Shown here: piece after piece, positions 1 through 58,330 of the stretch
Position numbering within the stretch: position 1 is the stretch's first letter
Layout of the letters: each line of letters starts with the position of its first letter
IMG/VR virus record: IMGVR_UViG_3300021426_000096
DNA from: a virus
Length of the DNA stretch: 64,000 nucleotides
Strand: one strand, 5' to 3'
Program-made: the position numbers and the translations under genes
Notes under the pieces: model-generated
Seen by the model: only the letters and a program-made list of their open reading frames with translations
Database searches by the model: none
What the model was told of the DNA's origin: nothing

Positions 1-66
1 CATTTCAGGATCAATAACATCCTCATCAATGCAAGAAAAATGTTTAACAAATAAAAAGTAATTAAT

Positions 67-345
67 ATGTTTGGACTTATTTTAGCACTTATTGCAGTAA
101 TCTGTTGTACTGCTGCATCTATTATGGATTTTGTCAATGAGCAATATGGACTGGGTATTCTCTTTGCTTTCCTGGCCATTCTTAATGGTATCTTTTTAGT
201 TGAAGATATTAAGAAACTCAATGCTCCAAAGGAACTCCATAGGGAACAGATTGAAAATGTTGTGAAGTATGATATCGATTCCACAACTGTCATAAATGGT
301 ATTGATACTACCAAGACTTATACAATCTATTATTATAAGTATTAA
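67..345 (+). CDS. small membrane protein
   Basis: 92-aa ORF with two hydrophobic helices (LILALIAVICCTAAS, GLGILFAFLAILNGIFLV). Confidence 0.45.
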   Translation: MFGLILALIAVICCTAASIMDFVNEQYGLGILFAFLAILNGIFLVEDIKKLNAPKELHREQIENVVKYDIDSTTVINGIDTTKTYTIYYYKY

Positions 346-348
346 GAT

Positions 349-801
349 ATGAGACCTGAAAATAAGAATATATTACAAAAAGGTGTGAATGCTCTCAAAG
401 CACTCCACTTTAATCCAGAAAACATTATGGTGACTGGAAGTGTTGCCCTTGACATTCTTGGGTTACTTCCTCCAAACAGAATCTCACATGATGTTGATTT
501 TATCATCAAGACAGATGACACAACCTGGAAATGTATGAAACTCATTGAGGCAATGAATAATCCAGAAGAGGATAATATGAATAGTTATCCCGGAAGGAAG
601 AACATGATTTTTCTCAATGTAGATGGAACAATCATCAACATATGGAGACATACTACTTATAATTATGATTGGTCTACCATTAAAGATTCTGAAACTGGTG
701 TAATGGTTGCTTCAGTAAATCACATCATAAGGGCAAAAAAAGAATATGGAAGACCCAAAGACTTTTTGGACATCAATGAAATTGTAAAAAACCTATTATG
801 A
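349..801 (+). CDS. minimal Pol-beta-fold nucleotidyltransferase (uncertain subfamily)
   Basis: MVTGSVALDILGL...SHDVDFII matches the GS-x(n)-D-x-D nucleotidyltransferase head motif; 150 aa. Confidence 0.4.
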   Translation: MRPENKNILQKGVNALKALHFNPENIMVTGSVALDILGLLPPNRISHDVDFIIKTDDTTWKCMKLIEAMNNPEEDNMNSYPGRKNMIFLNVDGTIINIWRHTTYNYDWSTIKDSETGVMVASVNHIIRAKKEYGRPKDFLDINEIVKNLL

Positions 802-1049
802 ATAAGATAAATCCTAATGAAAGTGATTTTGTAAAAGATAAAAGAAAAAATCACTGTAAAGGATGTATGAATGAAAATGGATATTGTTCAGCATGTGAAG
901 TCCTTAACTGTTGGTTAAGAAAAACATATCTTCCCGAAGGAGAATGGTCCAGAGCAAATATGGATGACATAACCTGGAAGAATGTAAATGAACTTTCCAA
1001 TGAAGTTGATAAGAAAATAATGAAAGAACTTTCAAAAGATGAAGTTTAA
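798..1049 (+). CDS. Cys-rich zinc-finger small protein
   Basis: CKGCMNENGYCSACEVLNC; ATGA overlap with the upstream stop. Confidence 0.45.
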   Translation: MNKINPNESDFVKDKRKNHCKGCMNENGYCSACEVLNCWLRKTYLPEGEWSRANMDDITWKNVNELSNEVDKKIMKELSKDEV

Positions 1050-1254
1050 GTTCAATGGAGGACACGGTGCCATCCTTTGTGAAAGATGTGGTGTCATCCT
1101 CAAACAAGGAAAAGATATCCCAGAGTATGTCTGGGAAGCAGTAAAGAATGGGACAGTGAAAGACCTGCCCGGGATGTACTGTGAGGACAACTGTGAGAGA
1201 AGTAAAATGATTCTTGGTGACCTCTATACTGGTGACACAAAAGATGTTGAGTAA
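1039..1254 (+). CDS. zinc-ribbon small protein
   Basis: CERCG...MYCEDNCE Cys pairs; 71 aa. Confidence 0.45.
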   Translation: MKFKFNGGHGAILCERCGVILKQGKDIPEYVWEAVKNGTVKDLPGMYCEDNCERSKMILGDLYTGDTKDVE

Positions 1255-1266
1255 TAATCAGAAAGT

Positions 1267-1686
1267 ATGAATAAAAATTTGAAATGTGACCATAAGGACA
1301 GGATAAGACTTGACCTTGTTTCAGGAAATCCCAACTGGTGTCTTGCTCTTGGAGAAAATGGTGGGACAAGGATTACAGATAACAAACTTTGGGGATTTGG
1401 TAGAACTGTACACTCCATTACCATCTCCAGGGAAAGATTGAAACACCTCATTGAAGGAAAGGACAAAGTGACTTTTCAGTTTGTTGACTATGGCAGTAAA
1501 GGGGTTTATCTTGATGGTGTCAGGATTAGTGCAACAGGTAAGAAGACTGATTATGATTCCTATATTAAACTGAAAGAAGAACAACAGAGATTATTGAATA
1601 AGTGCTGGTCTAAAAAGAGATACAATGCTTTATGTGATGACACTTGGTTTGTTGTTAAAACTAAAAATATTAAAGAACTGTTATAA
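1267..1686 (+). CDS. hypothetical protein
   Basis: 139-aa ORF in the compact + strand series. Confidence 0.5.
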   Translation: MNKNLKCDHKDRIRLDLVSGNPNWCLALGENGGTRITDNKLWGFGRTVHSITISRERLKHLIEGKDKVTFQFVDYGSKGVYLDGVRISATGKKTDYDSYIKLKEEQQRLLNKCWSKKRYNALCDDTWFVVKTKNIKELL

Positions 1687-2492
1687 TGTATTTCAAAAAT
1701 CTAAAAGAAAAGTGCGAATTTTATCGTTCACTCACAGATTATAAGTTGATGCCAAACTCTTATGTTCTGGTTATGGTGGATGGTCACTGTTTCAGCAGAC
1801 TCATCAAGAATAAGTTTAAGAAACCTTTTGATGACAAGTTCATCCAGATGATGAATGAAACTGCCAAGTATCTATGTGAGGAGGTTCAGGGTGTCAAATT
1901 TGCATACACCCAGTCTGATGAGATTTCTCTTCTCATCACTGACTTTGAGACTCCTACCACAGACTCTTACTTCAGTTTCAGACTCTGTAAGATGCAGTCA
2001 CTCATTGCAGCAGCGGCCACTGCCAAGTTCAACCAGATGTACTACAAACTGGTTGATGGTGTGAAGGATGTACCTCTCTGCACCTTTGACTGTAAGGTAT
2101 GGACTGTTCCAAATGCCAATGAAGCATATGCCTGGTTCCTTTACAGGCAGAATGACTGTATCAAGAACTCAAAGGCACAGACTGCACAGACCTATATCCC
2201 TCACAAGCAACTGGTTGGTCTCACAGCAGATGAGATGATAACCAAACTCAAGAATGAGCAGGGTATTGACTGGTATGAGTTTGAAAATGGTAAGAAGTTT
2301 GGTAGACTCATCAAGAAAGTGGAGACTCCTATGGAGAAGGATCTTCCAAATGGTCAGCATGTCAAGTTTGTAAGGAATGTATGGACTCCTGTCTCTATGA
2401 CTGACATGAAAGAGGATGCATCACCGGTGAGGGAACTGATACCAGTGTTCCAGAGTCCTGTTTTAAGTCTTAATGATATTTTAGGAGAATGA
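1686..2492 (+). CDS. Thg1-like protein (tRNA-His guanylyltransferase family 3'-5' nucleotidyltransferase)
   Basis: Aligns with the Thg1 core by eye: SYVLVMVDGHCFSRL..FKKPFD (YVVVRLDGRNFHRF..FAKPND), AYTQSDEISLL (AYGQSDEYSFV), CTFDCKVWTVP (PGFDGRVVVYP), WFLYRQNDCIKN (WRQADCHINN). Confidence 0.8.
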   Translation: MYFKNLKEKCEFYRSLTDYKLMPNSYVLVMVDGHCFSRLIKNKFKKPFDDKFIQMMNETAKYLCEEVQGVKFAYTQSDEISLLITDFETPTTDSYFSFRLCKMQSLIAAAATAKFNQMYYKLVDGVKDVPLCTFDCKVWTVPNANEAYAWFLYRQNDCIKNSKAQTAQTYIPHKQLVGLTADEMITKLKNEQGIDWYEFENGKKFGRLIKKVETPMEKDLPNGQHVKFVRNVWTPVSMTDMKEDASPVRELIPVFQSPVLSLNDILGE

Positions 2493-2866
2493 TAATTGCA
2501 ATTGATTTTGACGGGACTTGTGTGAAGCATGCATATCCCAAGATTGGTGAGGACATTGGTGCTGTCCCTGTACTCAAAGAGTTTGTTAGACAAGGTCATA
2601 TGTTGGTACTCAACACAATGAGATCAGGTCAACTCCTGAAAGAGGCGGAACAATGGTTCAAGGACAATGGCATTCCGCTCTATGGATCCAACCATACACC
2701 TGGACAGGAATCCTGGACTGAATCAACCAAGGTCTATGCCCAACTCTACATTGATGATGCAGCACTTGGTTGTCCAACCAACTATGATGGAATCAACAGA
2801 CCTTATGTTGATTGGAGGACTATTGCTCAGGCATTTGGTTACAAGTATGATGAACTTCCTAAATAA
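2489..2866 (+). CDS. small HAD-superfamily phosphatase
   Basis: MIIAIDFDGTCV (motif I DxDGT), LNTMRSG (motif II), LYIDDAALG (motif IV DD); start overlaps the Thg1-like stop. Confidence 0.55.
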   Translation: MIIAIDFDGTCVKHAYPKIGEDIGAVPVLKEFVRQGHMLVLNTMRSGQLLKEAEQWFKDNGIPLYGSNHTPGQESWTESTKVYAQLYIDDAALGCPTNYDGINRPYVDWRTIAQAFGYKYDELPK

Positions 2867-2874
2867 TTTTAACA

Positions 2875-3528
2875 ATGGTTAACAGGTATTATAATTTGAT
2901 GCTTGATGTCATTGATGAACTCAAAGACATTGAGAACAGGAGGTTTGCAAACTCTATACTTAACAGAGTTCCTGATTACTTCTTCACTGTTCCTGCATCC
3001 TCATCTGGTAAATATCATCCCAAGAATGACCTGGGCGAGGGTGGATTGGTAAGACACTCAATCAGTGTAGTAAGGATGCTTGAACATCTTGTAGAACCAG
3101 AAGGATACTTTGATTTTGATGAGGAACAGCTTGACTGCCTCAAGATTGCTGCACTGTTCCATGACTGCATGAAGTCTGGTACACAGGAAGAGTATGAGAA
3201 GAACTCCTGCACAAAGTTCCTTCATCCACTCTATGCTGCCAACTTCATTATGACTGTTGCCATTGAATGTGGGTATCCTTATGAGAAGGCAATTTTCATC
3301 TATGATGCAGTCATTGCTCATATGGGTCAGTGGAACACCAACAAGAATGAGGTTGGTAGTAAACTTCCAACCCCAGTATCACCCGGACAGAGAATCCTTC
3401 ACCTGGCAGACTATCTTGCATCAAGGAAGGACATCAATATAACTGTTGAAGAGGATGATGATGAGAAACCAGATTCACCAGTGGAGACTGTTGAAACTGC
3501 AAATGAAGTTGTTGATGAAGGTGTTTAA
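2875..3528 (+). CDS. HD-domain phosphohydrolase
   Basis: SSGKYHP...LVRHS...AALFHDCMK...YDAVIAHMG give the H..HD..H..D metal ligand pattern. Confidence 0.65.
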   Translation: MVNRYYNLMLDVIDELKDIENRRFANSILNRVPDYFFTVPASSSGKYHPKNDLGEGGLVRHSISVVRMLEHLVEPEGYFDFDEEQLDCLKIAALFHDCMKSGTQEEYEKNSCTKFLHPLYAANFIMTVAIECGYPYEKAIFIYDAVIAHMGQWNTNKNEVGSKLPTPVSPGQRILHLADYLASRKDINITVEEDDDEKPDSPVETVETANEVVDEGV

Positions 3529-5677: not shown

Positions 5678-6541
5678 ATGATAATACCTCCAATAAAGAT
5701 ACAGGGTAAGAAAACCAAACTGGTTCCAAGAATTATGGAGATTGCCCAAGAACAACTGGATGAGCATCCAGAGATTGACACCTGGGTAGAACCATTCCTG
5801 GGATCTGGTGTTGTTGCTTTCAACTGCCCAAACAGAATCAAGAATGTGATAGTGAATGACATCAATCCTCACATCATCAAGTTCTACAAAGGGATTGCAG
5901 ATGAGGTCATCACTCCTGAAAAAATAAAAGAGGTCTTCACTGAACACAGTAAGAAACTTCTCACTGGTGGGAATGACTACTACAATGAGGTCAAGAACAG
6001 GTTCAACCAGACCTTTGAAACAATGGACTTCCTCTTTCTTACCAGAACCGGGTTCAATGGTGTGATGAGGTTTAATGGTTCCGGAAAATGGAATGTTCCT
6101 TTCTGCAAACTTAATGACAGACTCTCAAACAAGGTAATAGATGAACTTTCCAGGTCCGTAGAAGAACTTTCTCATCTGTTTGGTACAAAGACCTTCACTT
6201 TCTATAACACTTCATTTGAGAAGGTTTTAGAGGTATCTCCTGCCAATTCAATTTTCTATTGTGATCCTCCTTACTATGGTTTACAGGTCCAGTACTTCAA
6301 AGGATGGGGGAAAGAAGATGAAATCAGACTCAACCAGATGTTAAAGGATAAGGTATTCATATATTCAACCTGGCTCAATGATGGTATCAAAGACAATCCA
6401 ATGATTGATGAGTATTGGAAGGACTTTGAGGTTGAGAGTAAAGCGCACAAATACAATGTGGCAGAGAAATCCAGTGAGAGAAACCAAGTGGTTGAAGGAA
6501 TAATATATAAAAAAGTTGACAATCCCTATTCCCTGTTTTAA
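5678..6541 (+). CDS. dam: DNA N6-adenine methyltransferase, Dam / D12 class
   Basis: EPFLGSGVV (FxGxG AdoMet motif), NPHIIKFYK, CDPPYYG (DPPY catalytic motif), FLTRTGFNG. Confidence 0.85.
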   Translation: MIIPPIKIQGKKTKLVPRIMEIAQEQLDEHPEIDTWVEPFLGSGVVAFNCPNRIKNVIVNDINPHIIKFYKGIADEVITPEKIKEVFTEHSKKLLTGGNDYYNEVKNRFNQTFETMDFLFLTRTGFNGVMRFNGSGKWNVPFCKLNDRLSNKVIDELSRSVEELSHLFGTKTFTFYNTSFEKVLEVSPANSIFYCDPPYYGLQVQYFKGWGKEDEIRLNQMLKDKVFIYSTWLNDGIKDNPMIDEYWKDFEVESKAHKYNVAEKSSERNQVVEGIIYKKVDNPYSLF

Positions 6542-8501: not shown

Positions 8502-9686
8502 ATGTTTGAACTTACTAAAGGTAAAGTGACCGCTATCATCTGCGGTGTGTTCGCTCTCATTGTCCTCTGCATGATGGGCAGTATCGGCGAGGATGTAAAG
8601 AATGAGAAGATTGTTGTCAATCAGTACCCCTTCTCTGGTAACATGGCATACTGGACCGAGCCTGGTTTCCAGTGGCAGTGGTTCGGTAAGACCACTGAGT
8701 ACTACAAGACCCAACAGTTCTGGTTTGGTGGTAAGGATGTGGATGGTGAATCCCATGGTAACCCCATCAAGGTAATCTTCAATGATGCTTCTGTCGGTTA
8801 CATCTATGGTTCCCTCCGTGTGGTACTACCTACTGATGTTGAACACCTCCGACTCATCCAGACTGCCTACAATGGAATGGATCGTCTGATGAATGACCTA
8901 GTTGCCCAGAATGTTGTGAAGGTTATCTATGCGTCTGGTCCTCTGATGTCAGCATTTGAGTCTTATGCAGAGAAGAAGAATGACATGGTATTCTACATTA
9001 CTGACCAGTTGACCTATGGTGTATACAAGACCACTATCCGTGAAGAGGATTCTGTTGACTCCTTCACTGGTGAGACCAAGAAGGTAAAGGTCGCATCGCT
9101 GGTCGCAGATGAGAATGCTCCTAATGGTTATGTCCGTTCTGAAAAGTCTCCTTTCACTTCCTATGGTGTGGTTATTGACCAGGTGTCCATCACTGAAATC
9201 ACTTATGATGAGAAGGTGAACCAGCAGATCCAGACCCAGCAGCAGGCTAATATGTCCATCCAGACTAAGAAGGCAGAAGCTCTGGCAGCCCAGCAGGATG
9301 CTATCAAGGCAGAGGCAGAGGGTAAGGCAGCAGCAGCCAAGGCCAAGTGGGACCAGGAGAGGATTAAGGCAACTGAGGTGACCAAGGCTGAACAGGAGAG
9401 GGAAGTAGCCCGTCTTGCGGCAGAGAAGGCTGAATTTGAGAAGAAGCGTGTGATTGCTGAAGGTCAGGCAGAGGCAGAGGCCAACCGCTTGAAGGTGGCA
9501 GCAGGTCTTACCCCCCAGGAAAAGGCAGAGTGGGATTACAAGACCAAGGTTGGTGTAGCAGAAGCCCTGTCCAAGACCGAGTGGCCTAAAATCGTGATGA
9601 ATGGTGGAGGCAATGGTGCCAATGGGGCTCTTGATGTCATCACCCTGGAGAGGATGAATGCTCTAGTTAAGTCTATGGCCAATTAA
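8502..9686 (+). CDS. SPFH / band-7 (HflC-prohibitin-like) membrane protein
   Basis: N-terminal TM, SPFH-like core, Ala/Glu/Lys coiled coil (QAEAEANRLKVAAGL resembles the HflK/C AEGEAEA region). Confidence 0.65.
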   Translation: MFELTKGKVTAIICGVFALIVLCMMGSIGEDVKNEKIVVNQYPFSGNMAYWTEPGFQWQWFGKTTEYYKTQQFWFGGKDVDGESHGNPIKVIFNDASVGYIYGSLRVVLPTDVEHLRLIQTAYNGMDRLMNDLVAQNVVKVIYASGPLMSAFESYAEKKNDMVFYITDQLTYGVYKTTIREEDSVDSFTGETKKVKVASLVADENAPNGYVRSEKSPFTSYGVVIDQVSITEITYDEKVNQQIQTQQQANMSIQTKKAEALAAQQDAIKAEAEGKAAAAKAKWDQERIKATEVTKAEQEREVARLAAEKAEFEKKRVIAEGQAEAEANRLKVAAGLTPQEKAEWDYKTKVGVAEALSKTEWPKIVMNGGGNGANGALDVITLERMNALVKSMAN

Positions 9687-10063: not shown

Positions 10064-12052
10064 TTGGCACAGTATATTAAAATAGGTGGGGTATGGAAAC
10101 CCATTGTTGGTGTTTATAAAAAGGTGAATGGATCCTGGGTTGAACAGGAGGTATATGCTTTTGAGAACACTGTTTATTTGTACAACTCATCAAAGATAGA
10201 TGTTGATGTGTTGTACATCATTGCTGATGACTCTTACACAGGTAAGCAGGCATATCTCATTGCCAAGCTCAACTCAACCAGGGTTTATCCAACATGGTCT
10301 ATTACATCAGGTGAACAGTATGCAACCATTAACAGTAATGGTAAACTGGATATAGAATCTGGTGCAAGTAATAACTCTGTGACTGTTCAGGCATCTTATG
10401 AGAATCTCATTGTTTCAAAAACCATTTCAGTATCCTATGACAACCAGTTGGTAATTGAATCACCTGATGTCATCACAGGTACAACAGGTAATGTGATTGC
10501 TGTTTACAACTCAACAGTTGTCAGTCCAGGTTGGACTATCATCTCTGGTGGTCAGCATGCAACTATTGATAGTAATGGTGAAATCACCATCATCAGTTCT
10601 GGTACGATACGAGTTCGTGCCTCTTATGACAACTACATCACAATGAAAGACATCAGACTTGAATATGATGCAACCAAGTCACAGCAGACTGTGGTGGATG
10701 AGTCTGGTACAATCACTACAACAGAGACAACCACCACCACTGATCCTGTCACTGGTACAACAACAGTTGAATCAATAGAGTCAGTTACCTATGAAGATGG
10801 TTCAACAGCCAACACAACATCTACAACAACTACCAACCTGGATGGTTCAACAACCACAACATCAGAAACAACCAATTCAGATGGTAGTTCTGTCAGCAGA
10901 GTCACATCAACATCAGCAGAAGATTCAGATGGTTCATACACTGTTGAGGAAAGTATAGAGATGACCAACCATGATGGTACTTCATCAGAGTCCTCATCAA
11001 CAACTGTCAATCATGAGGATGGTTCATCATCAAGTTCATCATCACTCATTATGTATGATGAAAATGGTGATGTGATTGACACCACCGAAACAACAAGTAC
11101 TACATCTGCACCAGACCAGGATGGTACAGTAACAACAGAAAGTACAACCACAGTAACAAATGCCGGAGGTACATCATCAGAATCAACATCAACATTGGTT
11201 GAAAGAACTGATGGTTCATCAACATCATCCACACAGTCAACAAATTATGATGAGAATGGTGATCCTACTGGTTCAATAACCAACACCACCAATATCTATG
11301 CAGATGGTTCATCACTGTCACAGACAACTAACTATGATGAGAATGGTGATCCAACCACAGGTACTAACTTTATGGGTGACACTGTCGGTAATGTGGATAT
11401 ACAGAGTCTGGAGTATGACTCCAATGGTGATCCTACTGTTACTGGTTATGTCATTGACACTTCTGCCAGTGATGGTGCTGGTAAAGACATCAATGCTGAT
11501 GGTGTTAACACTGACTACTATGCCTTTGATATCACTTATGGATTTGAACTCAATATTCACTTCACCATTAATTATTCTCAACAGCCTGCCAACCAGAATG
11601 AGAATCATCACAACATCCTTAATGCAAAGAGGGCAAGTCCATCTCCTTGGTATGGTTTCCAGTTGAGACAATCATCAACAAACAAGTATATACAATTAGG
11701 TGTACAGATGAATACTGGTAATAATCAAAATATAACAATCGAGGGTGTATCAACTGGTGTAACCAATGAAGGAGAGTTTGACTTGACTATTACTTATAAT
11801 CCTTTGGCATCTACCAATAAATTTGTATGTTATAATAACCTTACTGAATCAAATGTATATACAAAAAATGATACATTCCCAGACATAGAAGCATTAAAGT
11901 ACTTAAAGATAACAATTGGTTATGCAGTAGATGCAAATGGAGATCCTTACAGATACTCCAACATCAACTTGAAGAACTTCAGTGTATCCAGAATATATCC
12001 AACCTATGATAGTTCTGCATCTTGGGACACAAGTTCACAATGGGTATCATAA
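10064..12052 (+). CDS. tail-fibre-like protein with two Big_2 Ig-like domains, Thr/Ser-rich YDENGDP repeat linker and C-terminal beta-rich domain
   Basis: WSITSGEQYATINSNGKLDIESG..VTVQASY and WTIISGGQHATIDSNGEITIISSGTIRVRASY match Big_2; no ATG for 186 codons (track start is TTG), same frame as 9791..10054. Confidence 0.55.
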   Translation: MAQYIKIGGVWKPIVGVYKKVNGSWVEQEVYAFENTVYLYNSSKIDVDVLYIIADDSYTGKQAYLIAKLNSTRVYPTWSITSGEQYATINSNGKLDIESGASNNSVTVQASYENLIVSKTISVSYDNQLVIESPDVITGTTGNVIAVYNSTVVSPGWTIISGGQHATIDSNGEITIISSGTIRVRASYDNYITMKDIRLEYDATKSQQTVVDESGTITTTETTTTTDPVTGTTTVESIESVTYEDGSTANTTSTTTTNLDGSTTTTSETTNSDGSSVSRVTSTSAEDSDGSYTVEESIEMTNHDGTSSESSSTTVNHEDGSSSSSSSLIMYDENGDVIDTTETTSTTSAPDQDGTVTTESTTTVTNAGGTSSESTSTLVERTDGSSTSSTQSTNYDENGDPTGSITNTTNIYADGSSLSQTTNYDENGDPTTGTNFMGDTVGNVDIQSLEYDSNGDPTVTGYVIDTSASDGAGKDINADGVNTDYYAFDITYGFELNIHFTINYSQQPANQNENHHNILNAKRASPSPWYGFQLRQSSTNKYIQLGVQMNTGNNQNITIEGVSTGVTNEGEFDLTITYNPLASTNKFVCYNNLTESNVYTKNDTFPDIEALKYLKITIGYAVDANGDPYRYSNINLKNFSVSRIYPTYDSSASWDTSSQWVS

Positions 12053-12252: not shown

Positions 12253-12331
12253 TGGTATAATTCTTGATAATTTAGTGAAAGAAATCAAGAACCAGGTAGT
12301 ATATATAAGTGTAACAAACAAAACAAAACAT

Positions 12332-13165
12332 ATGATCAACTACACCAACATCAATGAGAACATCAACATCTACTTCAAGGAGATTCGTAAGTTCTCTTCT
12401 CTCACCAGGAAGGATGAGATGATTCTGTTTACCCAGATTTCCAATGGAGACAAGAGGGCAGAGACAGAAGTGTTCAACAAGATGTCCAAGTTAGCAGTCA
12501 ACATTGCCAAGACATATACCTGTAACCCCGAACTCCTGGAGGATCTCATCCAGGAGGCCAATATGGGTATCCTTACTGCCATCAAGAAGTATGATATGGA
12601 TGCAGGTTACAGGTTCTCCTCTTATTCCCGTTGGTGGATGAAGGCATACATTGGTAAGTTCCTGGAAGAGATGGGTATTGTCCATCATTGTAACCCTGTC
12701 ATCATCAAGAAGGCCAACAAGATTCGGGAGCAGTTCTATATGGAAAACCATAGGGACATCTCCGAGTATGAACTGATGGATAAGCTTGAGGAGATGGGTG
12801 AGATTGTCAATGACATCTCCACCATCCTCAACATCACCAGTGTCAGGATTGATATGCCTGTGTCAGAGGATGATGTCATCACCAAGAAGGATATGGGTGT
12901 GTTCGCTGATCGCACCGCATCTACCAATTCCTTTGTGGAAGAGGAAGAGAATGAGACTCTCTCTTCTGACATTGCCAAGAGACTGGTCAAACTCACCCCC
13001 AGGGAGCAGCAGCTCATCCTGATGAAGTTTGGGTTTGTATCTGGATATGAGATGGATTACAAGTCCATTGCTGAAAAGTGGAATGAGGGTAAGTCTGAAA
13101 AGGAACAGCTCACCCAGGAAAGGGTTCGCCAGTTGGTGATTGGTGCTCTCAAAAAAATGAAGTAA
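12332..13165 (+). CDS. sigma-70 family RNA polymerase sigma factor
   Basis: Region 2: DLIQEANMGILTAIKKYD..GYRFSSYSRWWMKAYI (DLIQEGNIGLMKAV.KFD..GYKFSTYATWWIRQAI); region 4: LTPREQQLILMKFG...TQERVRQL. Confidence 0.85.
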   Translation: MINYTNINENINIYFKEIRKFSSLTRKDEMILFTQISNGDKRAETEVFNKMSKLAVNIAKTYTCNPELLEDLIQEANMGILTAIKKYDMDAGYRFSSYSRWWMKAYIGKFLEEMGIVHHCNPVIIKKANKIREQFYMENHRDISEYELMDKLEEMGEIVNDISTILNITSVRIDMPVSEDDVITKKDMGVFADRTASTNSFVEEEENETLSSDIAKRLVKLTPREQQLILMKFGFVSGYEMDYKSIAEKWNEGKSEKEQLTQERVRQLVIGALKKMK

Positions 13166-16146: not shown

Positions 16147-16401
16147 ATGAGCATCAAGAAAGTTACTAACGAAGAACTTCGTAAGATGATGATGGAAGGT
16201 CCGGTCACCTTCCAGTACAAGAAGAATGATGGGACTATCCGCCAGGCTGTGGGTACTCTCAAGTCCAGTCTTATCACCAAGAAACCGGCTGGTGGACAGA
16301 ACAAGGTAAAGGATGCTGGTTACTCCACCTACTTTGACATTGAGAAGGACTGGTGGAGGGCTTATGCAGAGTCCCGCCTTATTGGTGTGGTTGAACCCTA
16401 A
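16147..16401 (+). CDS. hypothetical protein, FQY(K/R)K...YFD(I/V)EK.(D)WRAY family
   Basis: Paralogous to the C-terminal half of 18241..18654. Confidence 0.5.
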   Translation: MSIKKVTNEELRKMMMEGPVTFQYKKNDGTIRQAVGTLKSSLITKKPAGGQNKVKDAGYSTYFDIEKDWWRAYAESRLIGVVEP

Positions 16402-16988
16402 TGCAAGAGCAGATGTCTGAACTTGTGAAAGATTCTATCTTTGGTGGTATCCTCATTGGGCTGGGTGCCTTTGGTTACCTGGCCCTTGGAGGAATCCCTG
16501 GGGCGATCATCTTCTCATTTGGACTCATTGGTGTTGTCCTTGGAGGATGTGACCTCTACACCGGTAAGGCAGGTGTCCTTAACAACCACTGGGAGATACT
16601 TTGTATCTGGTTCTTCAATGTCCTGGCCTGTGGACTCATTGGTCTGATGGTCTTGTATCTGGGCGGAGAACCTGTGGAGAGAGCGAAGGAACTGGTCGCA
16701 AATCGTCTCGCAGTAGATTATGGGAGAGTATTTGTCAAGGCCATTGGATGTGGACTCATCATTGATTTCTCCTGTTCCATTTACAGGGTGTCGAACAACA
16801 TATATGCCATCATCTTTGGTGTCCCTCTCTTCATCCTGTGTGGATTCTACCACTCCATTGCTGATGTGGTTTATATAGTGGCTGCCTGGAACTGGTCTGT
16901 TGATGTCCTCTGGTATTATCTTATGATTTTCCTGGGCAACTATGTAGGATGTAATGTAAAAAGATTTATTTCACTGATAATCAAATAA
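16401..16988 (+). CDS. polytopic membrane protein, possibly FNT (formate/nitrite transporter)-like
   Basis: 5-6 TM helices; LGGCDLYTGK and WFFNVLACGLIG loosely resemble the FNT signatures; shorter than canonical FNT. Confidence 0.3.
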   Translation: MQEQMSELVKDSIFGGILIGLGAFGYLALGGIPGAIIFSFGLIGVVLGGCDLYTGKAGVLNNHWEILCIWFFNVLACGLIGLMVLYLGGEPVERAKELVANRLAVDYGRVFVKAIGCGLIIDFSCSIYRVSNNIYAIIFGVPLFILCGFYHSIADVVYIVAAWNWSVDVLWYYLMIFLGNYVGCNVKRFISLIIK

Positions 16989-18240: not shown

Positions 18241-18654
18241 ATGAGTGCATGGGGTGATATGATGAAAAGAGGTTCAGGTGAGGAAGAAAGAATAGAAGAT
18301 AAATCTATCTTCCTTGAAGTTACTGATGGTTTCAAACCTTCCACACTTGAAAATATGATGAAAGAGGGTATTGTTCACTTCCAATACAGAAAGAAACCCA
18401 AGAAAGGTCAGACAGTAGGTGAAATCAGAGATGCTTGGGGAACCAAGAATATGTCTGTTGTCTCCAAGATTCCTCACGGTGGAGACTGTCCACCAAAGAG
18501 AGTGGGTTATACCATCTACTTTGATGTGGAGAAGGCTGATTGGAGAGCCTACTGGGATGGAAATGTGATTGGTGCATGGAGTAAAGTATACACAGAAGAA
18601 GAGTTTCATAAAGAACTTGCCAAGGAATTGGAAGAAGAAACTCCCACAGAATAA
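18241..18654 (+). CDS. hypothetical protein (paralog family with 16147 and, N-terminally, 24719)
   Basis: MSAWGDMMKRGSGEE N-terminus shared with 24719 (MTAWGDMMKRGVGEG); C-terminus shared with 16147. Confidence 0.5.
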   Translation: MSAWGDMMKRGSGEEERIEDKSIFLEVTDGFKPSTLENMMKEGIVHFQYRKKPKKGQTVGEIRDAWGTKNMSVVSKIPHGGDCPPKRVGYTIYFDVEKADWRAYWDGNVIGAWSKVYTEEEFHKELAKELEEETPTE

Positions 18655-19039: not shown

Positions 19040-19645
19040 ATGGATAAATTAAGTTATGCAATTGGTATGAGTATTGGTCAGAATATGATCAATGCAGGTA
19101 TTGACAATATTGAATTTGATGATTTCCTCAAGGGAGTGAAAGTCATCTTCAATGAAACGAAACCAGAGATTTCTGTGGAGTATGGTAACCAGATTCTTCA
19201 GACTTATTTTGAAAAGAAAAAGAAGGAAGAGGAGAAGAGACAGAAGGAGGAGAGTGAGAAGAGACTGAAAGAAGGTGAAGAGTTCCTCAAGAAGAACTCC
19301 AGAGAGGAAGGAGTGCAGGTGACTGCATCAGGACTTCAGTATAAAGTGATTTCCAAGGGGGATGGACAGCAGCCCGGTCCTCACGGCAGAGTGAAGTGCC
19401 ATTATGAGGGAAGGTTCATTGATGGACAGGTCTTTGACTCATCATATAAGAGAGGTGAACCCACAGTCTTTGGACTTGATCAGGTCATCCCTGGCTGGAC
19501 AGAAGGTCTGCAACTGATGAATGTTGGATCCAAGTATGAGTTCTACATTCCTGGAGATCTTGGATATGGTGAGAGAGGAATTCCTGGTCATATTCCTGGA
19601 AACACTGTTCTAATCTTCACAGTTGAATTGTTAAACATTGAGTAA
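19040..19645 (+). CDS. FKBP-type peptidyl-prolyl cis-trans isomerase (FkpA/FklB-like)
   Basis: GLQYKVISKGDG..P.....VKCHYEGRFIDGQVFDSSYKRGEPTVFGLDQVIPGWTEGLQLMNVGSKYEFYIPGDLGYGERGIPGHIPGNTVLIFTVELL matches the FKBP fold signature throughout. Confidence 0.8.
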   Translation: MDKLSYAIGMSIGQNMINAGIDNIEFDDFLKGVKVIFNETKPEISVEYGNQILQTYFEKKKKEEEKRQKEESEKRLKEGEEFLKKNSREEGVQVTASGLQYKVISKGDGQQPGPHGRVKCHYEGRFIDGQVFDSSYKRGEPTVFGLDQVIPGWTEGLQLMNVGSKYEFYIPGDLGYGERGIPGHIPGNTVLIFTVELLNIE

Positions 19646-22083: not shown

Positions 22084-22761
22084 ATGGAAGAGTATAACAC
22101 CAAATATCCCAGAACTTATCATGTTCCCTGGTCACCTGGGGCTACTTCTGATGACAAGAAGCAGCCCGATGACTGGTTCTATGCCTATGGATGGGCAGGG
22201 AGTGAGATAGTGATCACTGAGAAGTTAGATGGTGAGAATACAGCTTTCCAGAATGGAGATGTATACAGTAGGAGTCATGCTGTTCCTACCAGGTCTCCCT
22301 GGTCAAGGAATCTGTGGGACACTGATGGTCTCCTGTGGAAAGTGAAAAGTAAAATCACAGGAGATGAGATCATCTATGGAGAGAATCTCTATGGTGAACA
22401 CAGTATCCATTATGACAAACTGCCGGCATACTTCTTCGCCTTCGCATATCGTAGAGGAAATCATTGGTTTCCCTGGGATGATGTGGTGATGATGAGTGAA
22501 ATCCTGGATGTTCCCACTGTCCCGGTACTGTGGAGAGGGGTGATAGAGACTGAACCTCAACTGAGGAGACTGGCCGCACAGTTTATGGCAGAACCCTCCA
22601 CCTATGGTGACACCAAGGAAGGAGTGGTGATGAGGAAGGTTGAAGGGTTTGACAATGATGATTTCTCCAAGAATGTGGTCAAGTATGTCAGGGAGAATCA
22701 TGTACAGACTGACCAGCATTGGACAAGGAACTGGAAGAGAGCAGAATTGATAATAAAATGA
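22084..22761 (+). CDS. ATP-dependent RNA ligase, Rnl2-like / RNA_ligase family
   Basis: Motif I TEKLDGENTAF (KxDGxN adenylation lysine), motif IV EGVVMRKVEG, motif V NVVKYVREN; order and spacing as in T4 Rnl2. Confidence 0.6.
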   Translation: MEEYNTKYPRTYHVPWSPGATSDDKKQPDDWFYAYGWAGSEIVITEKLDGENTAFQNGDVYSRSHAVPTRSPWSRNLWDTDGLLWKVKSKITGDEIIYGENLYGEHSIHYDKLPAYFFAFAYRRGNHWFPWDDVVMMSEILDVPTVPVLWRGVIETEPQLRRLAAQFMAEPSTYGDTKEGVVMRKVEGFDNDDFSKNVVKYVRENHVQTDQHWTRNWKRAELIIK

Positions 22762-27902: not shown

Positions 27903-28442
27903 ATGAAATTGACAGACAAATATGTGTTCTTCTGGAAGGAACATCCGATGTGCAACTTCACCAAATGTAAGATAAGACTAGATGACCCGTATTTTGTAGC
28001 CCAAGATGAGGATCCACTAGAGTTCACATCTAGTGAGCAGTTGTTTATGTGGTTCAAGGCCAAGTACTTCAAGGATGAGGAGACAGCAGAGAAGATCTAC
28101 AAGAGTTCCTCTCCAGAGGAGGCCAGGCAACTGGGCAGACTGGTCAAGAATTATGATGACAGTAAGTGGGATGGAGTCAGAGTCTATTATATGAGGAAGG
28201 CAGTGACCTATAAGTTCCATCAGAACCCTAATCTCCAGGAGAAGCTCCTTGATGAGAAGTATGCTGGCAAGATGTTTGTTGAAGCTGCATACTATGACAA
28301 AATCTGGGGAATTGGGTTCAATGAGAATGAAGCGATAGGTAACGAGCAGAGATGGGGTCGCAATGAACTGGGCAAGATTCTGACAGCAGTCAGAAATACA
28401 CTGAAGTTGATGAAGGAATCAGGGAAATTTCCAAAAGTCTGA
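27903..28442 (+). CDS. NADAR (YbiA-like) domain protein
   Basis: Aligns with E. coli YbiA: F..C...FTSSEQLFMWFKAKYFKDEETAEKI..SSSPEEARQLGRLV..W...R...M..A...KF.QNPNL.EKLL.T....VEA...DKIWGIG......G.N.LGKIL..VR. Confidence 0.7.
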   Translation: MKLTDKYVFFWKEHPMCNFTKCKIRLDDPYFVAQDEDPLEFTSSEQLFMWFKAKYFKDEETAEKIYKSSSPEEARQLGRLVKNYDDSKWDGVRVYYMRKAVTYKFHQNPNLQEKLLDEKYAGKMFVEAAYYDKIWGIGFNENEAIGNEQRWGRNELGKILTAVRNTLKLMKESGKFPKV

Positions 28443-29288: not shown

Positions 29289-29561
29289 ATGAAAGCATAT
29301 CGTATTATTCGTAATGAGCATGAGAATGGGAAATCAACCTGGGGACTTCAGAAGCTGAAGAAATCCTGGTTGACTGGTAAAGATTACTGGGTCAATTATT
29401 GGTCAGACTCCTGGGAGTATGGTTGGTGCAGATCCGCTGACAAAGCTACTAGGTTCTGTACAGAAGAGGCTGCAATGAAAGTGCTCAATGATTTTCTAGG
29501 ATGTCTAGGCTGGGACATCACCAAAACTACTGTGGTGAAGGAATTCAAATATGAAGAGTAA
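29289..29561 (+). CDS. hypothetical protein
   Basis: 90-aa ORF. Confidence 0.45.
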   Translation: MKAYRIIRNEHENGKSTWGLQKLKKSWLTGKDYWVNYWSDSWEYGWCRSADKATRFCTEEAAMKVLNDFLGCLGWDITKTTVVKEFKYEE

Positions 29562-30351
29562 TATCAATACACTGATTATCCCTGATGTTCATGGCCGGAG
29601 CTTCTGGATGGATCCTGTGGTTGAGGTACTGGCCAATACTGATGCCAAGATTGTCTTCCTAGGAGATTACCTGGACCCGTATCCTGATGAGTGGGAAGAT
29701 GGTGTGGATTACAGGAGAGTCTCCATCCAACGTCTAGAGCAGATTCTTGAGCTCAAGAGACTTCACCTAGGGAGAATCGTTCTGTTGATTGGGAATCATG
29801 ATTGTGGATACTGTATCGGAGATGACATCTGTTCATCCAGGATGGACAGAAGGAATGCAAAAGAGATTGGTATCCTGTTTGAGGAGAATCAGGATCTGTT
29901 CCAATTGGCAGAGGAGACTGACATTGCAGGAAAGCACTTCATCTTCAGTCATGCCGGCATCCTGAAGGGTTGGGCTGACCGGGTCTGGGGTGAAGATGAG
30001 GTAGCAGGTCCTGCATTCAATGTGGTTGAGGAACTCAATGAGGCATGGAGGAGACAATCCTATGGAATCCTGAATTCCCTCGGCGATTACGATAGGTATC
30101 GTGGTTGGGGTGGATACCAGTATGGGTCACCAGTGTGGTCAGACATCAGATCCTGGATCTATGTGAAACCAGAGGATACATTTGGATACAATATTGTGGG
30201 TCATACCCAGTGTGGGTCACCGGTCATCCTGGACACCATTGCAGATCTGGACTGTAGAAAAGTATTCTATATAGATGACCAGGGTGAGATCAGAGACTTC
30301 ATCTCCGGAGAGAAGCAAGAGATGGGTGACCTGAAACCAGATGAATTCTGA
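29551..30351 (+). CDS. calcineurin-like metallophosphoesterase (PP-lambda / ApaH-like)
   Basis: IIPDVHGR (GDxHG), VFLGDYLD (GDxxD), LLIGNHD (GNHD/E). Confidence 0.65.
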   Translation: MKSNINTLIIPDVHGRSFWMDPVVEVLANTDAKIVFLGDYLDPYPDEWEDGVDYRRVSIQRLEQILELKRLHLGRIVLLIGNHDCGYCIGDDICSSRMDRRNAKEIGILFEENQDLFQLAEETDIAGKHFIFSHAGILKGWADRVWGEDEVAGPAFNVVEELNEAWRRQSYGILNSLGDYDRYRGWGGYQYGSPVWSDIRSWIYVKPEDTFGYNIVGHTQCGSPVILDTIADLDCRKVFYIDDQGEIRDFISGEKQEMGDLKPDEF

Positions 30352-36715: not shown

Positions 36716-36790
36716 GGTCTCATAGTTCAACGGATAGAACAGCAGTTTCCTAAACTGTAGATCTGGGTTCGATTCCCGGTGAGACTACCA
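36716..36790 (+). tRNA. tRNA-Arg (anticodon CCU), CCA encoded
   Basis: Cloverleaf GGTCTCA/TGAGACT acceptor, GTTC-AACGGATA-GAAC D arm, GCAGT-TTCCTAA-ACTGT anticodon arm (CCT), AGAT variable loop, CTGGG-TTCGATT-CCCGG T arm, discriminator A, then CCA. Confidence 0.8.
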
Positions 36791-45772: not shown

Positions 45773-48700
45773 TTAGTTGTCAGCAAGTCGGACTGTCCAA
45801 TTAACAGGAATACCATTCTCATTAGTTGTCCAACCAGACATACCCGATTTCTTTACAAATGTACCAACAGAAGCAACTCCAGACACCCAACTAGTAGTAC
45901 AGGCGCCTGCAGATACACTTGTTGCAAGACATTTGATGTAATTAAGACTTCTACAATTTTGGAACATATATCTATAACAATATGTTACTAAAGTAGAAGC
46001 AAGGAGATCAGGCGCTGTAGTCAATGTAGTACAACCTTTAAACATACTATAATAACATGCATTAACCAATGTAGTTGCCGGAAGTGCAGGTGCCGTAGTC
46101 AATGCAGTACAACCTTCAAACATGCTACAATAACAGTATTGTTTGAGTGATTTTGCTGGGAGTTCTGGCGCTGTAGTCAATGCAGTACAGCCAGAGAACA
46201 TATAATAATAGCAAAAATCTGTCATAGAGGTTGCTGGAAGAGTTGGTGCTGTAGTCAATGCAGTACAGCCAGAGAACATATATGCATAACAATATTTAGC
46301 TAATGTAGTTACAGAGAGAGTTGGTGCAGTGGTTAAACTAGTACAATTTTGGAACATACAATAATAAGCCTGATATCCAACACTACTTGGCATTATTAAA
46401 TTCTTCGCAGATACCACAGGAGTTCCCTTAAACAAATAAGGTTGAGATTCATTGGTACTGCGATATATTGAAGATAAATTACCACCTACTTCAAAACTGG
46501 CAGTTGTTCCTTGGAATGAACTATATAAATCTACATTGTTATCATATATACCCGCTCCAAACTTGAACTGCACAATGTCTCCAGCAACAACACTGATGGT
46601 GGTTCCATTGTCAGAAGAAACAATATTTGTCCAGGTTCCACCATTTTTAGAATATTTCAATGTTTTTATGCCACCAGAATTATATGGATCTTCTGAAGTA
46701 TTTATACAGTAATACTTCCAAGAGATATTACCATCACTTGTTATCTCAAATGTGAGAGGTTCATTAGAATAATCAACTTCAGCAGTCCATCCAGTTGGGA
46801 TACCACTTGTACCAGTAGTCCATGAGGAACTCAAAACTTTTACAAATGTACCCGTTGCTGCAACTCCATCTACCCAATCTGTTAATCCTGAACTGTAGCT
46901 GAGGTCCGTAGCTGAACACTTAATATAATTCAAATTACTGCATCCCTTGAACATATAAGAATAACAATTACTTGCTAATACAGCAGCAGGAAGTACTGGA
47001 GCTGTTGTTAATCCGGTACAACCATAGAACATGTTACAATAACAGTATTGTTTGAGTGATTTTGCTGGGAGTTCTGGCGCTGTTGTTAATCCGGTGCATC
47101 CGTAGAACATACTTCTATAGCATGCCATAAATAAATTAGTAGCTGGGAGTTCTGGAGCTGTTGTTAACGATGTACAACCTTTAAACATACAATCATAACA
47201 GTATTGATTAAGTGTAGTAGCAGGAAGTTTTGGTGCTTTAGTTAAATTAGTACAACCTTCAAACATATTTTCATAACAACCCCATTTTAGTGATGTTGAT
47301 GGAAGAATAAGATGCTCCGCTGATATTAATCCATCACAATCAACAAACAAACATGCATATTCCAAATTTGATGCATCGGCGGACATAAAATCATCCCCAG
47401 CAGTTAACGACATTATGTTTCCATAAACATCTACTTGGATAGATGACGATTTTATGTAAAAATAATTATAATATGATGTGTTACCACCAACATAATTACC
47501 TTTAACTCTTACTTTATCACCGGTAAGAACATCAATAGAGCCAGCAGCATATTTATTTGGGGTTATTTTCTGCCATTCGCCATTATTTACAGAACAATAT
47601 ATTGGATAAGCAGTTGCACCATTATCATTAATTTTCCATGTGATTCTTCCACCGGATTTAACATCAAATGTAAGATACTGCTGTGTATACTCATATTCAG
47701 TTTCACTATAAACATTCCAGCCTGAAGGAATACCACTTGCCCCAGTTGTCCACGAATCTATATTGTCTGCTTTAACAAATGTGCCTGTTTCTGCTACTCC
47801 ATATACCCATTTACCTGTGCAACTATCAGCAGATATATCTATTGCAAGACATTTGATATAATTAAGGTTAGTACAACCATTGAACATATAATAATAACAA
47901 TATTTTGTCAATGTAGTAGCAGGGAGTTCAGGTGCTGTTGTTAGACTTGTACAATTAGAGAACATATATCCATAACAATAACCTACCAATGTAGTAGCCG
48001 GAAGCTCAGGTGCTGTGGTTAGACTTGTACAATTAGAGAACATATAAAAATAACAACATGTTGCTAATGTAGTAGCAGGAAGAACTGGTGCTGTAGTTAG
48101 ACTAGTACAACCATAGAACATATATTCATAACAATATTTTGTCAATGTAGTAGCAGGAAGAACTGGTGCTGTAGTTAGACTAGTACAACCATAGAACATA
48201 TATTCATAACAATAGTCTGCCAATGTAGTAGCTGAAAGCTCAGGTGCTGTTGTTAGACTTGTACAACCAAAGAACATACTGGAATAACAATAGTCTGCCA
48301 ATGTAGTAGCAGGGAGTTCAGGTGCTGTGGTTAGACTAGTACAGCCATCAAACATAGACCGATAACAATAATCAACTAATGTAGTAGCAGGGAGTTCAGG
48401 TGCTGTGGTTAGACTTGTACAACCAAAGAACATACCGGAATAACAATAACTCACCAATGTAGTAGCAGGGAGTTCAGGTGCTGTGGTTAGACTAGTACAA
48501 CCATTGAACATACCCAAATAACACCCAGTTGCTAATATAGTAGCAGGGAGCGTAGGTGCTGTTGTTAGACTAGTACAACCATTGAACATATACCGATAAC
48601 AATAGTCTGCCAATGTAGTAGCAGGGAGAATAAGGTTTTCTGCTGATAATAATCCAGTACAATTATAGAATAAATATGCAAACGTATAAGATGATGATAA

Positions 48701-50926: not shown

Positions 50927-50958
50927 ATATATTAATTTTTTTCCTTTATTATATTTAT

Positions 50959-57420
<6,462 letters not shown>

Positions 57421-57508: not shown

Positions 57509-58330
57509 ATGGGTAAGATTTTTAGTAAAGTAGATTATGGTAATGGTTCAAAATATTGGTTCTTCTTTAATAGGGTGATAGCCAAAAAGATGGATACCTG
57601 TTTCTATCTATTGAAGAAACCAAAAGAAGGTGAATATATAGGTGATGATTGGTATGCTGGTTGGCATGACTGGAAGTTTGACATCTCTTATGAAGAGTGT
57701 GGATATGATTCAGGAAATGCTGAATTGAATATTAGTATTCTGGGGTGGCATTCTGTATTCAAACTCCCATGGAAGAGTAAGAGATTTCCTGACGGCGATT
57801 GCGATGCACCAAAGTGGGGTATCGCAATTCATAATGCAACACTCTGGATTTATAAAGGTGGTAATGGAAACTGGGGAGGAGGATCCAAGTGGTGGACCTG
57901 GGACATACCATTCTGGACAAAGATACATGTAAGACATGATGTACAATGTAATGTTGGAGATTATGACAGTGACCCTACACTCATAATGGTACCTTATGAT
58001 AACCTGGAGAGATATGTTGATGATAAATATATTCCTCTTGAACAGAATGAACTGGTCTATAAGTACCACTATGATTACACAGACAAGTATGATGGTAAGG
58101 TCATTCCTTGTACTTTCTGGGTTGAAGAAAGGGAATGGAGACCAAAGTGGTTGACATGGACAGGAAGATGGAAAGAGGTTGACAGATATATTGAGATTGT
58201 TTTCTCTGATGAGGTTGGAAGTAGAAAAGGATCTTGGAAAGGTGGTTGTATTGGATGTAGTTATACACTCAAAGAAGGTGAGACCCCTATGGACTGCATC
58301 AAGAGGATGGAAAAAGAAAGAAGTTTTTAA
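57509..58330 (+). CDS. Trp-rich hypothetical protein
   Basis: 273-aa ORF, diverges from the giant gene. Confidence 0.5.
   Translation: MGKIFSKVDYGNGSKYWFFFNRVIAKKMDTCFYLLKKPKEGEYIGDDWYAGWHDWKFDISYEECGYDSGNAELNISILGWHSVFKLPWKSKRFPDGDCDAPKWGIAIHNATLWIYKGGNGNWGGGSKWWTWDIPFWTKIHVRHDVQCNVGDYDSDPTLIMVPYDNLERYVDDKYIPLEQNELVYKYHYDYTDKYDGKVIPCTFWVEEREWRPKWLTWTGRWKEVDRYIEIVFSDEVGSRKGSWKGGCIGCSYTLKEGETPMDCIKRMEKERSF

Follow-up and report, generated by a model that had tools for sequence, protein, structure and literature searches.

Introduction

A toolkit for RNA repair has been predicted for jumbo phages, comprising tRNAs; ligases of the Rnl1, Rnl2, and RtcB types; polynucleotide kinases (PNK); HAD proteins (PNK-HAD and Swiss-army-knife); calcineurin-like and HD-like phosphoesterases; RlaP; a CCA-adding enzyme; and a 'sporadic' Thg1 [Iyer et al. 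2021, Viruses 13:63, section 3.4.9, PMC7824862]. Compared with it here is a stretch of 64,000 nucleotides of viral DNA (IMG/VR record IMGVR_UViG_3300021426_000096; "the window" denotes this whole stretch), near the start of which lie genes for a Thg1-like protein (TLP), a small nucleotidyltransferase (NTase150), a small HAD phosphatase (HAD125), and an HD-domain protein (HD217). With a probability of roughly 0.55, the window holds the downstream half of a large-phage RNA-end repair island, an end-restoration kit for tRNAs truncated by host nucleases.

The locus and the jumbo-phage toolkit have in common PF09414-type ligases, RlaP, Swiss-army-knife HAD, HD-like and calcineurin-like phosphoesterases, Thg1, tRNAs, and NADAR. 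The toolkit is a genome-level survey of presence and absence, whereas here the TLP gene lies physically inside an island; the window phage is without a PNK detectable in 72 kb; and the survey names neither the NTase150 family nor the BT0820-type HAD nor the YhaM-like HD. An initial annotation of the window did not know this combination as a described phage system. Thg1 is listed in the toolkit of Iyer et al. (PMC7824862); the kit, Thg1 included, is thus already predicted computationally for jumbo phages, and the window is a good example of it rather than a new system. New here are the physical clustering of the TLP with repair genes, with statistics; NTase150, the BT0820-type HAD, and the YhaM-like HD as accessory families; and the apparent absence of a kinase.

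With T4 Pnkp and Rnl1, set against PrrC, the locus shares the phage logic of end healing followed by sealing, a HAD-type phosphatase, and an ATP-dependent RNA ligase. It differs in that no kinase was found in the window phage and in that its ligases are adenylyltransferase-only (225 aa), with no detectable similarity to solved ligases. It differs also in carrying the nucleotide-adding enzymes RlaP, TLP, and NTase150, a sign that the ends under repair may lack nucleotides and need more than plain religation. In the HD-Pnk/ligase cluster of Runella slithyformis (Munir & Shuman 2017; cited in PMC6097658), an HD domain acts as 2',3'-phosphoesterase beside a ligase in RNA/DNA end healing. A kinase-HD fusion likewise stands beside a ligase in a phage locus described below (L162). 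HD217 differs from HD-Pnk in standing alone, with no kinase domain.

Results and Discussion

Layout of the island

Upstream DNA was read from contig NODE_238 of ENA assembly ERZ12302851 (stretch L009), to which the window is identical except for its first 10 bases. The alignment begins at base 11, and the difference alters the reading of the RlaP tail. The RNA-end repair island spans about 9.4 kb, and the window begins inside it. Its order is PF09414 ligase ... HAD_SAK_2 ... RlaP - open reading frame (ORF) - NTase150 - three small ORFs - TLP - HAD125 - HD217, and a minus-strand ORF comes after the HD217 end. RlaP (Pfam E 1e-17; phrog_388 E 8e-44), the 'Swiss-army-knife' HAD_SAK_2, and a second PF09414 RNA ligase lie upstream of the window on the same strand and contig, all three inside 6 kb.

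Four ORFs had been described in the initial annotation as overlapping or nearly so, and all were recovered at their coordinates on the + strand (Table 1). The ATG of HAD125 overlaps the TLP stop codon, as had been noted; the near-adjacency of the nucleotidyltransferase and Thg1-like genes does not hold, since the three small ORFs lie between them. Stop-codon recoding was considered, as Lak phages recode TAG, and rejected, for the standard code yields the same long ORFs.

The window has no nucleotide-level match to known phages. Contigs of 95-411 kb represent the related genomes; among named phages, the Lak megaphages have the TLPs nearest to that of the window; the genome of the window phage is probably larger than 270 kb.

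The Thg1-like protein

In profile searches the TLP scores 99.2 bits with Pfam Thg1 (PF04446; cutoff 29.2) and E 3e-59 with phrog_4717. Among solved proteins the TLP of Bacillus thuringiensis (BtTLP; PDB 4KGK) comes closest, at E 8e-36; human Thg1 (hThg1) reaches only E 7e-11. Residues D32, S77-D78-E79, and K46 align with hThg1 D29, S75-D76-E77, and K44, and D32, S77, D78, and E79 are invariant among 9 phage TLPs; the carboxylates on which the proposed Thg1 identity depended (D32, D78, E79) are all present. The eukaryotic HINNLYN motif is absent and the TLP-type DCIKNSK stands instead, 'RQNDCIKNSKAQ' being aligned to 'RQADCHINNLYN'. Because carboxylates and lysine are conserved, BtTLP is far closer than hThg1, and HINNLYN is replaced, the product is, as judged by sequence, a bacterial-type TLP with intact catalytic residues.

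About 200 aligned residues are shared with BtTLP, among them the catalytic carboxylates, the ATP-activation lysine, and the D-x-x-K-N-S segment that replaces HINNLYN. The window TLP differs in being phage-encoded and in a C-terminal extension of about 45 aa past residue 209 of 268, the last one aligned. Viral TLPs are abundant (at least 548 stretches in IMG/VR; 151 GenBank phage records).

Linkage of TLP genes with RNA-repair genes

Six related genomes (loci L006-8 and L255-257; TLP 74-78% identical) share the order RlaP-NTase150-TLP-HAD125-HD217, with turnover of the small ORFs in between. Outside this clade, the comparison took in 80 diverse viral loci with a TLP (30-54% identity, 10 kb to each side), which form 70 clusters after removal of near-duplicates. 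A ligase, PNK-like kinase, HAD_SAK, or RlaP gene lies within 10 kb of the TLP in 21 of the 70 clusters (30%; 10, 9, 8, and 4 clusters, respectively). These repair genes are concentrated close to the TLP: of 32 hits, 18 fall within 3 kb, whereas the share predicted by the available flank is 33% (p=0.005). This near-versus-far test inside TLP loci is the better control, the control loci of the HD and HAD families being not neutral and having shorter flanks. HAD_SAK_2 is the most frequent Pfam family among immediate TLP neighbors (n=149), and tight arrangements are found: HAD_SAK-TLP-RlaP in L093, TLP-RlaP in L020, and TLP-ligase in L046. Some phages with more distant TLPs (31-54% identity) carry a PNK-like kinase 1-5 kb from the TLP, and arrays of tRNA genes stand beside TLPs in several phages.

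Because 30% of clusters carry repair genes, concentrated within 3 kb, the TLP belongs to phage RNA-repair islands; HAD125 and HD217 generally do not. The RNA-repair kit of the initial annotation therefore stands as a TLP-centered island, with RlaP, HAD_SAK_2, and a ligase upstream and with recurrence elsewhere; its linkage to the HAD, HD, and nucleotidyltransferase genes does not, as this is confined to a single clade.

In several assemblies of cellular genomes, from Ruminococcus (L282, L285, L295, L299) and Eubacteriales (L338), 8-45 nt separate the end of an RNA-ligase gene from the start of the TLP. We know of no description of this conserved cellular ligase-TLP pair. A small viral contig (L053, 3856-8229) groups RNA ligase, SmpB, tRNA genes, and TLP, the tRNA genes numbering ten over about 6 kb; there, unlike in the window, genes for translation rescue and RNA repair do form a true cluster.

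The clustering of TLPs within 3 kb of ligase, PNK-like kinase, RlaP, and HAD_SAK points to repair of tRNA 5' ends as a phage answer to tRNA-targeting defenses. Such a role implies that some host defenses remove nucleotides from tRNA 5' ends; to our knowledge, none has been described. The window offers a compact, syntenic set of candidate enzymes; as comparative genomics had already predicted the toolkit, the conceptual novelty of the window is limited.

Table 1 Features of the window that bear on RNA-end repair. Coordinates are those of the window unless L009 is named.
Feature	Coordinates	Strand	Basis and remarks
RlaP (PF10127), RNA 3'-end nucleotidyltransferase; last 17 codons and stop	1..54	+	Rest upstream, L009 7053-8369
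92-aa hydrophobic small ORF	67..345	+	Position kept in relatives; 33-42% identity in L006, L007, L255-257; no family match
NTase150, minimal Pol-beta-fold nucleotidyltransferase of a narrow unannotated family	349..801	+	Motifs, model, Foldseek
83-aa Cys-rich small ORF	798..1049	+	No tblastn match in L006-8, L255-257
71-aa CxxC-containing small ORF	1039..1254	+	Directly upstream of TLP in relatives; 69-87% identity in L006-8, L256, L257; no family match
139-aa ORF, variable insert	1267..1686	+	65% identity in L256 only; no family match
TLP, bacterial-type Thg1-like protein; predicted templated 3'-5' RNA polymerase on 5'-phosphorylated, 5'-truncated tRNA	1686..2492	+	PF04446, 4KGK
HAD125, BT0820-type small HAD phosphatase; candidate 3'-phosphatase or nucleotide phosphatase	2489..2866	+	NCBIfam, 2OBB, motifs
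HD217, stand-alone YhaM-like HD-domain metal-dependent phosphoesterase	2875..3528	+	PF01966, YhaM profile and fold
RNA ligase, candidate sealing enzyme	22084..22761	+	PF09414, 95.6 bits; adenylyltransferase domain only; motif I KLDG

NTase150, HAD125, and HD217

That the first of the four genes encodes a minimal nucleotidyltransferase is borne out by motifs and predicted fold, not by a sequence family. Pfam matches of NTase150 are all sub-threshold (DUF7277, E 1e-3; AbiEii, E 0.05) and there is no NCBIfam match; its family counts 55 homologues, every one at least 53% identical. Invariant residues are G30-S31, H47-D48-x-D50, K130-K131, and R135-x-K137-D138. A structural model (predicted local distance difference test, pLDDT, 89) finds with Foldseek the putative nucleotidyltransferase TM1012 (E 1e-4), then poly(A) polymerase, CCA-adding enzymes, and MenT3. 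The predicted Pol-beta fold is confirmed by the invariant GS...HDxD...RxKD motifs, the model, and the Foldseek search, in which the top matches are all Pol-beta nucleotidyltransferases. On a later strand (residues 94-100) N97 is invariant and no invariant acidic residue was identified; Asn97 would be placed where the third catalytic carboxylate is expected. The substrate of NTase150 may be an RNA 3' end. TM1012 and the minimal nucleotidyltransferases MenT/AbiEii have the same fold, GS...DxD signature, and C-terminal RxKD motif; NTase150 differs in having no significant sequence-family membership and no evident antitoxin partner or HEPN gene.

The HAD assignment of HAD125 was upheld by the NCBIfam BT0820 family (NF046079; E 2e-24, 86.4 bits, under the 165-bit equivalog cutoff), by PDB 2OBB (E 7e-18), and by invariant motifs I-IV (D6-F-D8-G-T10, S46, K81, D89-D90), with no significant Pfam match. 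By these scores HAD125 is a homologue, not an equivalog, of BT0820, on which no literature was found. Among neighbors of the HAD125 family (n=98) the calcineurin-like phosphoesterase (Metallophos) is commonest (9/98), and in crAss-like phages the family is directly paired with a T4-Pnk-like P-loop kinase.

HD217 is an HD protein as annotated (PF01966, 42.4 bits; cutoff 22): H61, H96-D97, H117, H149, and D179, which include the HD His/Asp ligands, are invariant in 40 homologues, and a PxSSxGKYH motif is also present. With the family profile the best solved relative is YhaM/Cbf1 (9O7T) at a marginal E 0.008, over residues 15-187 and including the PA-SS...H motif. The model (pLDDT 85) is all-helical and has one significant Foldseek match, YhaM 9H3F (E 1.2e-4; template modeling scores 0.59/0.60). 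YhaM is a 3'-5' exoribonuclease and single-stranded DNA 3'-exonuclease whose HD domain binds two metals [PMC12107432, PMC11347170]. HD217 shares with YhaM/Cbf1 (9H3F, 9O7T) the PA-SS...H motif and the extended HD metal ligands besides the fold; it differs in lacking the N-terminal OB substrate-binding domain (YhaM residues 20-90; PMC12107432) within its 217 aa and in having Met at the second His of the YhaM HH pair. From fold and motifs, the likeliest prediction for HD217 is a nuclease or phosphodiesterase that attacks the 3' end of single-stranded nucleic acid.

HD217 homologues stand near repair genes in a second phage group. TLP lies 3-7 kb downstream in 9 of 79 HD217-family loci; the order is HD - ORF - RNA ligase - PNK-like kinase with HD-like segment - ... 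- TLP in L162 and HD - ORF - RNA ligase - ORF - TLP in L104, and in HGTV-1 the homologue is two genes from RtcB. The L162 kinase (10483-11349), of the PNK P-loop type, bears an HD-like segment (YYHDCGKP) at its C-terminus and adjoins an RNA ligase of the PHA02142 type; its domain order is the reverse of that in Runella HD-Pnk, and homologues occur in 15 of 79 HD-family loci. An SPFH/Band7 gene (window 8502-9686, +) lies about 6 kb downstream of HD217 and likewise in 14 of 79 distant HD-family loci (e.g. L109-L134); the arrangement HD217 ... SPFH/Band7 looks like an old conserved gene order. A prohibitin-family gene is found near the TLP in Fusobacterium phage Fnu1.

Proposed mechanism and alternatives

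Once host nucleases had truncated tRNAs, phosphatases would remove 3'-phosphates, and RlaP, perhaps with NTase150, would re-add one or two nucleotides at 3'-OH ends; Pseudomonas RlaP adds one or two nucleoside monophosphates to damaged RNA 3' ends [PMC12776372]. The TLP would adenylylate the 5'-monophosphate end and, copying the other strand of the acceptor stem, rebuild missing 5' nucleotides, and a ligase would close the nicks. We infer all substrates, the order of the steps, and the counter-defense purpose. HAD125 and HD217 are plausible but unproven members of this pathway.

Several observations weigh against the island as a tRNA end-restoration kit. The flanking YodL-SLT-Band7 genes are equally syntenic in the clade, so that gene order within it shows shared ancestry, not functional coupling. 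In 70% of TLP clusters no repair gene lies within 10 kb. The neighborhood expected in related phages is kept only within the clade: of the 80 diverse viral loci with a TLP, one has HAD125, on the opposite strand, and none has HD217 or NTase150, and in cellular TLP genomes HD217 and HAD125 occur once each. Since they adjoin the TLP in one clade only, HAD125, HD217, and NTase150 may be no part of the pathway. Operon limits were not definable, sigma-70 promoter-like sites numbering 46 against 48.2 expected by chance; a terminator scan found no strong + strand intrinsic terminator before L009 13950. No experimental study of any phage TLP was found in the literature, and a TLP review does not mention viruses.

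The kinase is a further difficulty. In the window and 8.3 kb upstream there is no gene-sized ORF with a Walker A motif, the sole pattern match lying in a 70-aa ORF, and a PNK profile found no match at E<=10 in the window, L009, or the 20-kb loci L006-8, control loci scoring E 1e-43 to 1e-61. The search covered about 72 kb of the genome; 5'-OH breaks would therefore not be sealable by these ligases unless a kinase is encoded elsewhere.

The alternatives share much of this evidence. One is that the TLP serves tRNA maturation or quality control, adding G-1 to tRNA-His or acting on the 5' ends of phage array tRNAs, with its neighbors as general RNA-processing factors. BtTLP can add G-1 opposite C73, phage databases label TLP genes tRNA-His guanylyltransferase, 16 of 60 loci have a tRNA gene no more than 10 kb from the TLP, and tRNA-His occurs in the arrays of L054, L070, and L079. 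All three phage tRNA-His genes examined (n=3), however, encode G-1 and C73, which makes post-transcriptional addition of G-1 needless and weakens the G-1 hypothesis. No tRNA lies near the TLP in the window or its relatives, and TLPs recur with enzymes of the repair type (ligase, PNK-like kinase, HAD_SAK, and RlaP) rather than with RNase P or modification enzymes. We consider this alternative unlikely.

It is also improbable, in our judgment, that the genes have no joint function and owe their order to clade synteny in a crowded early-gene array. HD217 would then be a YhaM-like 3'-exonuclease or nucleotide phosphohydrolase of replication, recombination, or salvage, HAD125 a nucleotide phosphatase, and NTase150 an enzyme with an unrelated target. 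Immediate neighbors of the HD217 family (106, deduplicated) are mostly replication or deoxynucleotide genes, namely RecD2-like helicase (17-19), ThyX (10), ERCC4 (9), dCMP deaminase (5), and Pol III alpha (4), and the homologues in SPO1 (gp32.6) and phage c-st lie amid replication genes, which also tells against the repair island. YhaM degrades single-stranded DNA 3' ends (PMC12107432), and HD217 may belong instead to DNA or nucleotide metabolism as a 3'-exonuclease. These neighbors, together with YhaM as the only significant relative, do not sustain the role of 2',3'-cyclic-phosphate healer first proposed for the HD protein. HAD125-family genes adjoin not only Metallophos but also guanylate kinase, adenylosuccinate synthetase, and dCMP deaminase genes, and in Lak phages the HAD125 homologue and the TLP are more than 100 kb apart; the isolation of the three families from the 80 diverse TLPs points the same way. 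On the other side stand the second phage group, in which HD lies beside RNA ligase, PNK-like kinase (L162), and TLP; the HD gene by RtcB in HGTV-1; the pairing of HAD with a T4-type Pnk kinase in crAss-like phages; a TLP within 3 kb in 3 of 79 HAD loci; and the constant order of the five enzyme genes amid changing ORFs.

A kinase-independent variant of the repair scheme would be trimming and refilling of tRNA: the YhaM-like HD would trim 3' ends that are damaged or phosphorylated, RlaP and/or NTase150 would refill them, the TLP would refill the 5' end from a 5'-phosphate by templated reverse polymerization, and the minimal ligase would seal. We regard it as quite doubtful. If true, it would undo the work of nucleases that cut nucleotides out and produce 5'-P ends, for instance metal-dependent tRNases with cleavage sites in or near the acceptor stem, and would be the first biological role for a viral 3'-5' polymerase.

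Very improbable is the model put forward in the initial annotation, in which breaks by anticodon nucleases such as PrrC/RloC (5'-OH, 2',3'-cyclic phosphate) are healed with the TLP in place of PNK and an HD/HAD pair in place of the Pnkp phosphatase: no P-loop kinase is detectable in the regions searched, phosphoesterases and ligases are present, and HD domains can be 2',3'-phosphoesterases in end healing, as in the Runella HD-Pnk cited in PMC6097658, but Thg1/TLP reverse polymerization starts by adenylylating a 5'-monophosphate (p-RNA to App-RNA) with no kinase activity (PMC6471195), so that a TLP is unable to heal a 5'-OH and is no substitute for a kinase; it needs a base-paired 3' template strand, which the anticodon loop does not provide; the PNK-like kinase beside distant TLPs makes the two partners, not alternatives; the relatives' contigs measure 270-410 kb, so a kinase may sit outside the 72 kb seen; and HD217 resembles an exonuclease, not HD-Pnk.

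Ligases, tRNA-Arg, and SmpB

The window ligase (225 aa), 18.5 kb from the island, had been called Rnl2-like. It is an RNA ligase by PF09414, and the narrower label is unconfirmed, since it consists of the adenylyltransferase domain only and has no PDB match. A PDB sequence search with both ligases, that of the window and that upstream, gave no match to solved ligases. Both have motif I KLDG and nothing else in common, and recent paralogy was therefore rejected. In L017 homologues of both ligase types cluster upstream of the TLP. At 5-8 kb past the window ligase lie a NADAR-domain protein (27903-28442, +; E 3e-41) and a calcineurin-like phosphoesterase (29551-30351, +; weak match), which may form a second, looser group for RNA repair or ADP-ribose processing.

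The tRNA-Arg and SmpB genes are not upheld as parts of the kit. The tRNA-Arg(CCT) (anticodon CCU; 36716-36790) is the sole tRNA of the window, 34 kb from the TLP, and in the window genes sampled 41% of Arg codons are AGG, enough to explain it. SmpB (175.6 bits; start at 62934 in public assemblies) lies 60 kb from the island and is common in huge phages, with homologues in 68 phage records, including Lak and 735-kb phages. ARAGORN and Rfam searches for tmRNA or other structured RNA in the window detected the tRNA only.

Further features of the window and of related loci

From about 40 kb the window has lower GC (about 0.35 against 0.42) and altered GC skew. Two minus-strand ORFs in this part, 45773-50971 (1732 aa) and 50959-57420 (2153 aa), match glycosyl hydrolase 2, BspA-type leucine-rich repeat (LRR), Fn3_assoc, and CHB_HEX_C_1. 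It was considered whether the low-GC right part (glycosyl hydrolase 2, BspA-LRR, FKBP, and Form_Nir matches) is bacterial DNA, with SmpB and the tRNA as host genes; this was rejected because the genes sit in dense small-ORF arrays on the same contigs and SmpB homologues occur in Lak and 735-kb phages. Adjoining the two giant ORFs is a homologue of the CBASS inhibitor Acb3 (57509-58330, +; PF25187, 121 bits, E 1e-34), an anti-defense protein.

Further + strand genes encode a Dam-type N6-adenine DNA methyltransferase (5678-6541; PF02086, E 7e-40); a phage sigma-70-like factor with regions 2 and 4 (12275-13165); and, in a small-ORF array, two WYL_2 small proteins (16147-16401; 18241-18654), a 195-aa truncated formate/nitrite-transporter-like protein (16401-16988), and an FKBP-type peptidyl-prolyl isomerase (19040-19645). 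In Yersinia phage fHe-Yen9-04 and in Fusobacterium phage Fnu1, too, a DNA methyltransferase is encoded a few kb from the TLP.

On the island strand and ahead of the first RNA ligase, L009 (92-1429) carries a GmrSD_N (DUF262-type) protein and an ATP-grasp enzyme of the R2K clade; the R2K gene of L008 is followed directly by the ligase. Inside the island, L009 4733-5530 encodes a 265-aa protein matching phrog_10081 ('transposase'; E 2e-70), kept in all relatives at 61-79% identity. In the close relative L257 (1533-2982), genes for a microbial PARG and an NT5C 5'(3')-deoxyribonucleotidase are inserted directly upstream of RlaP.

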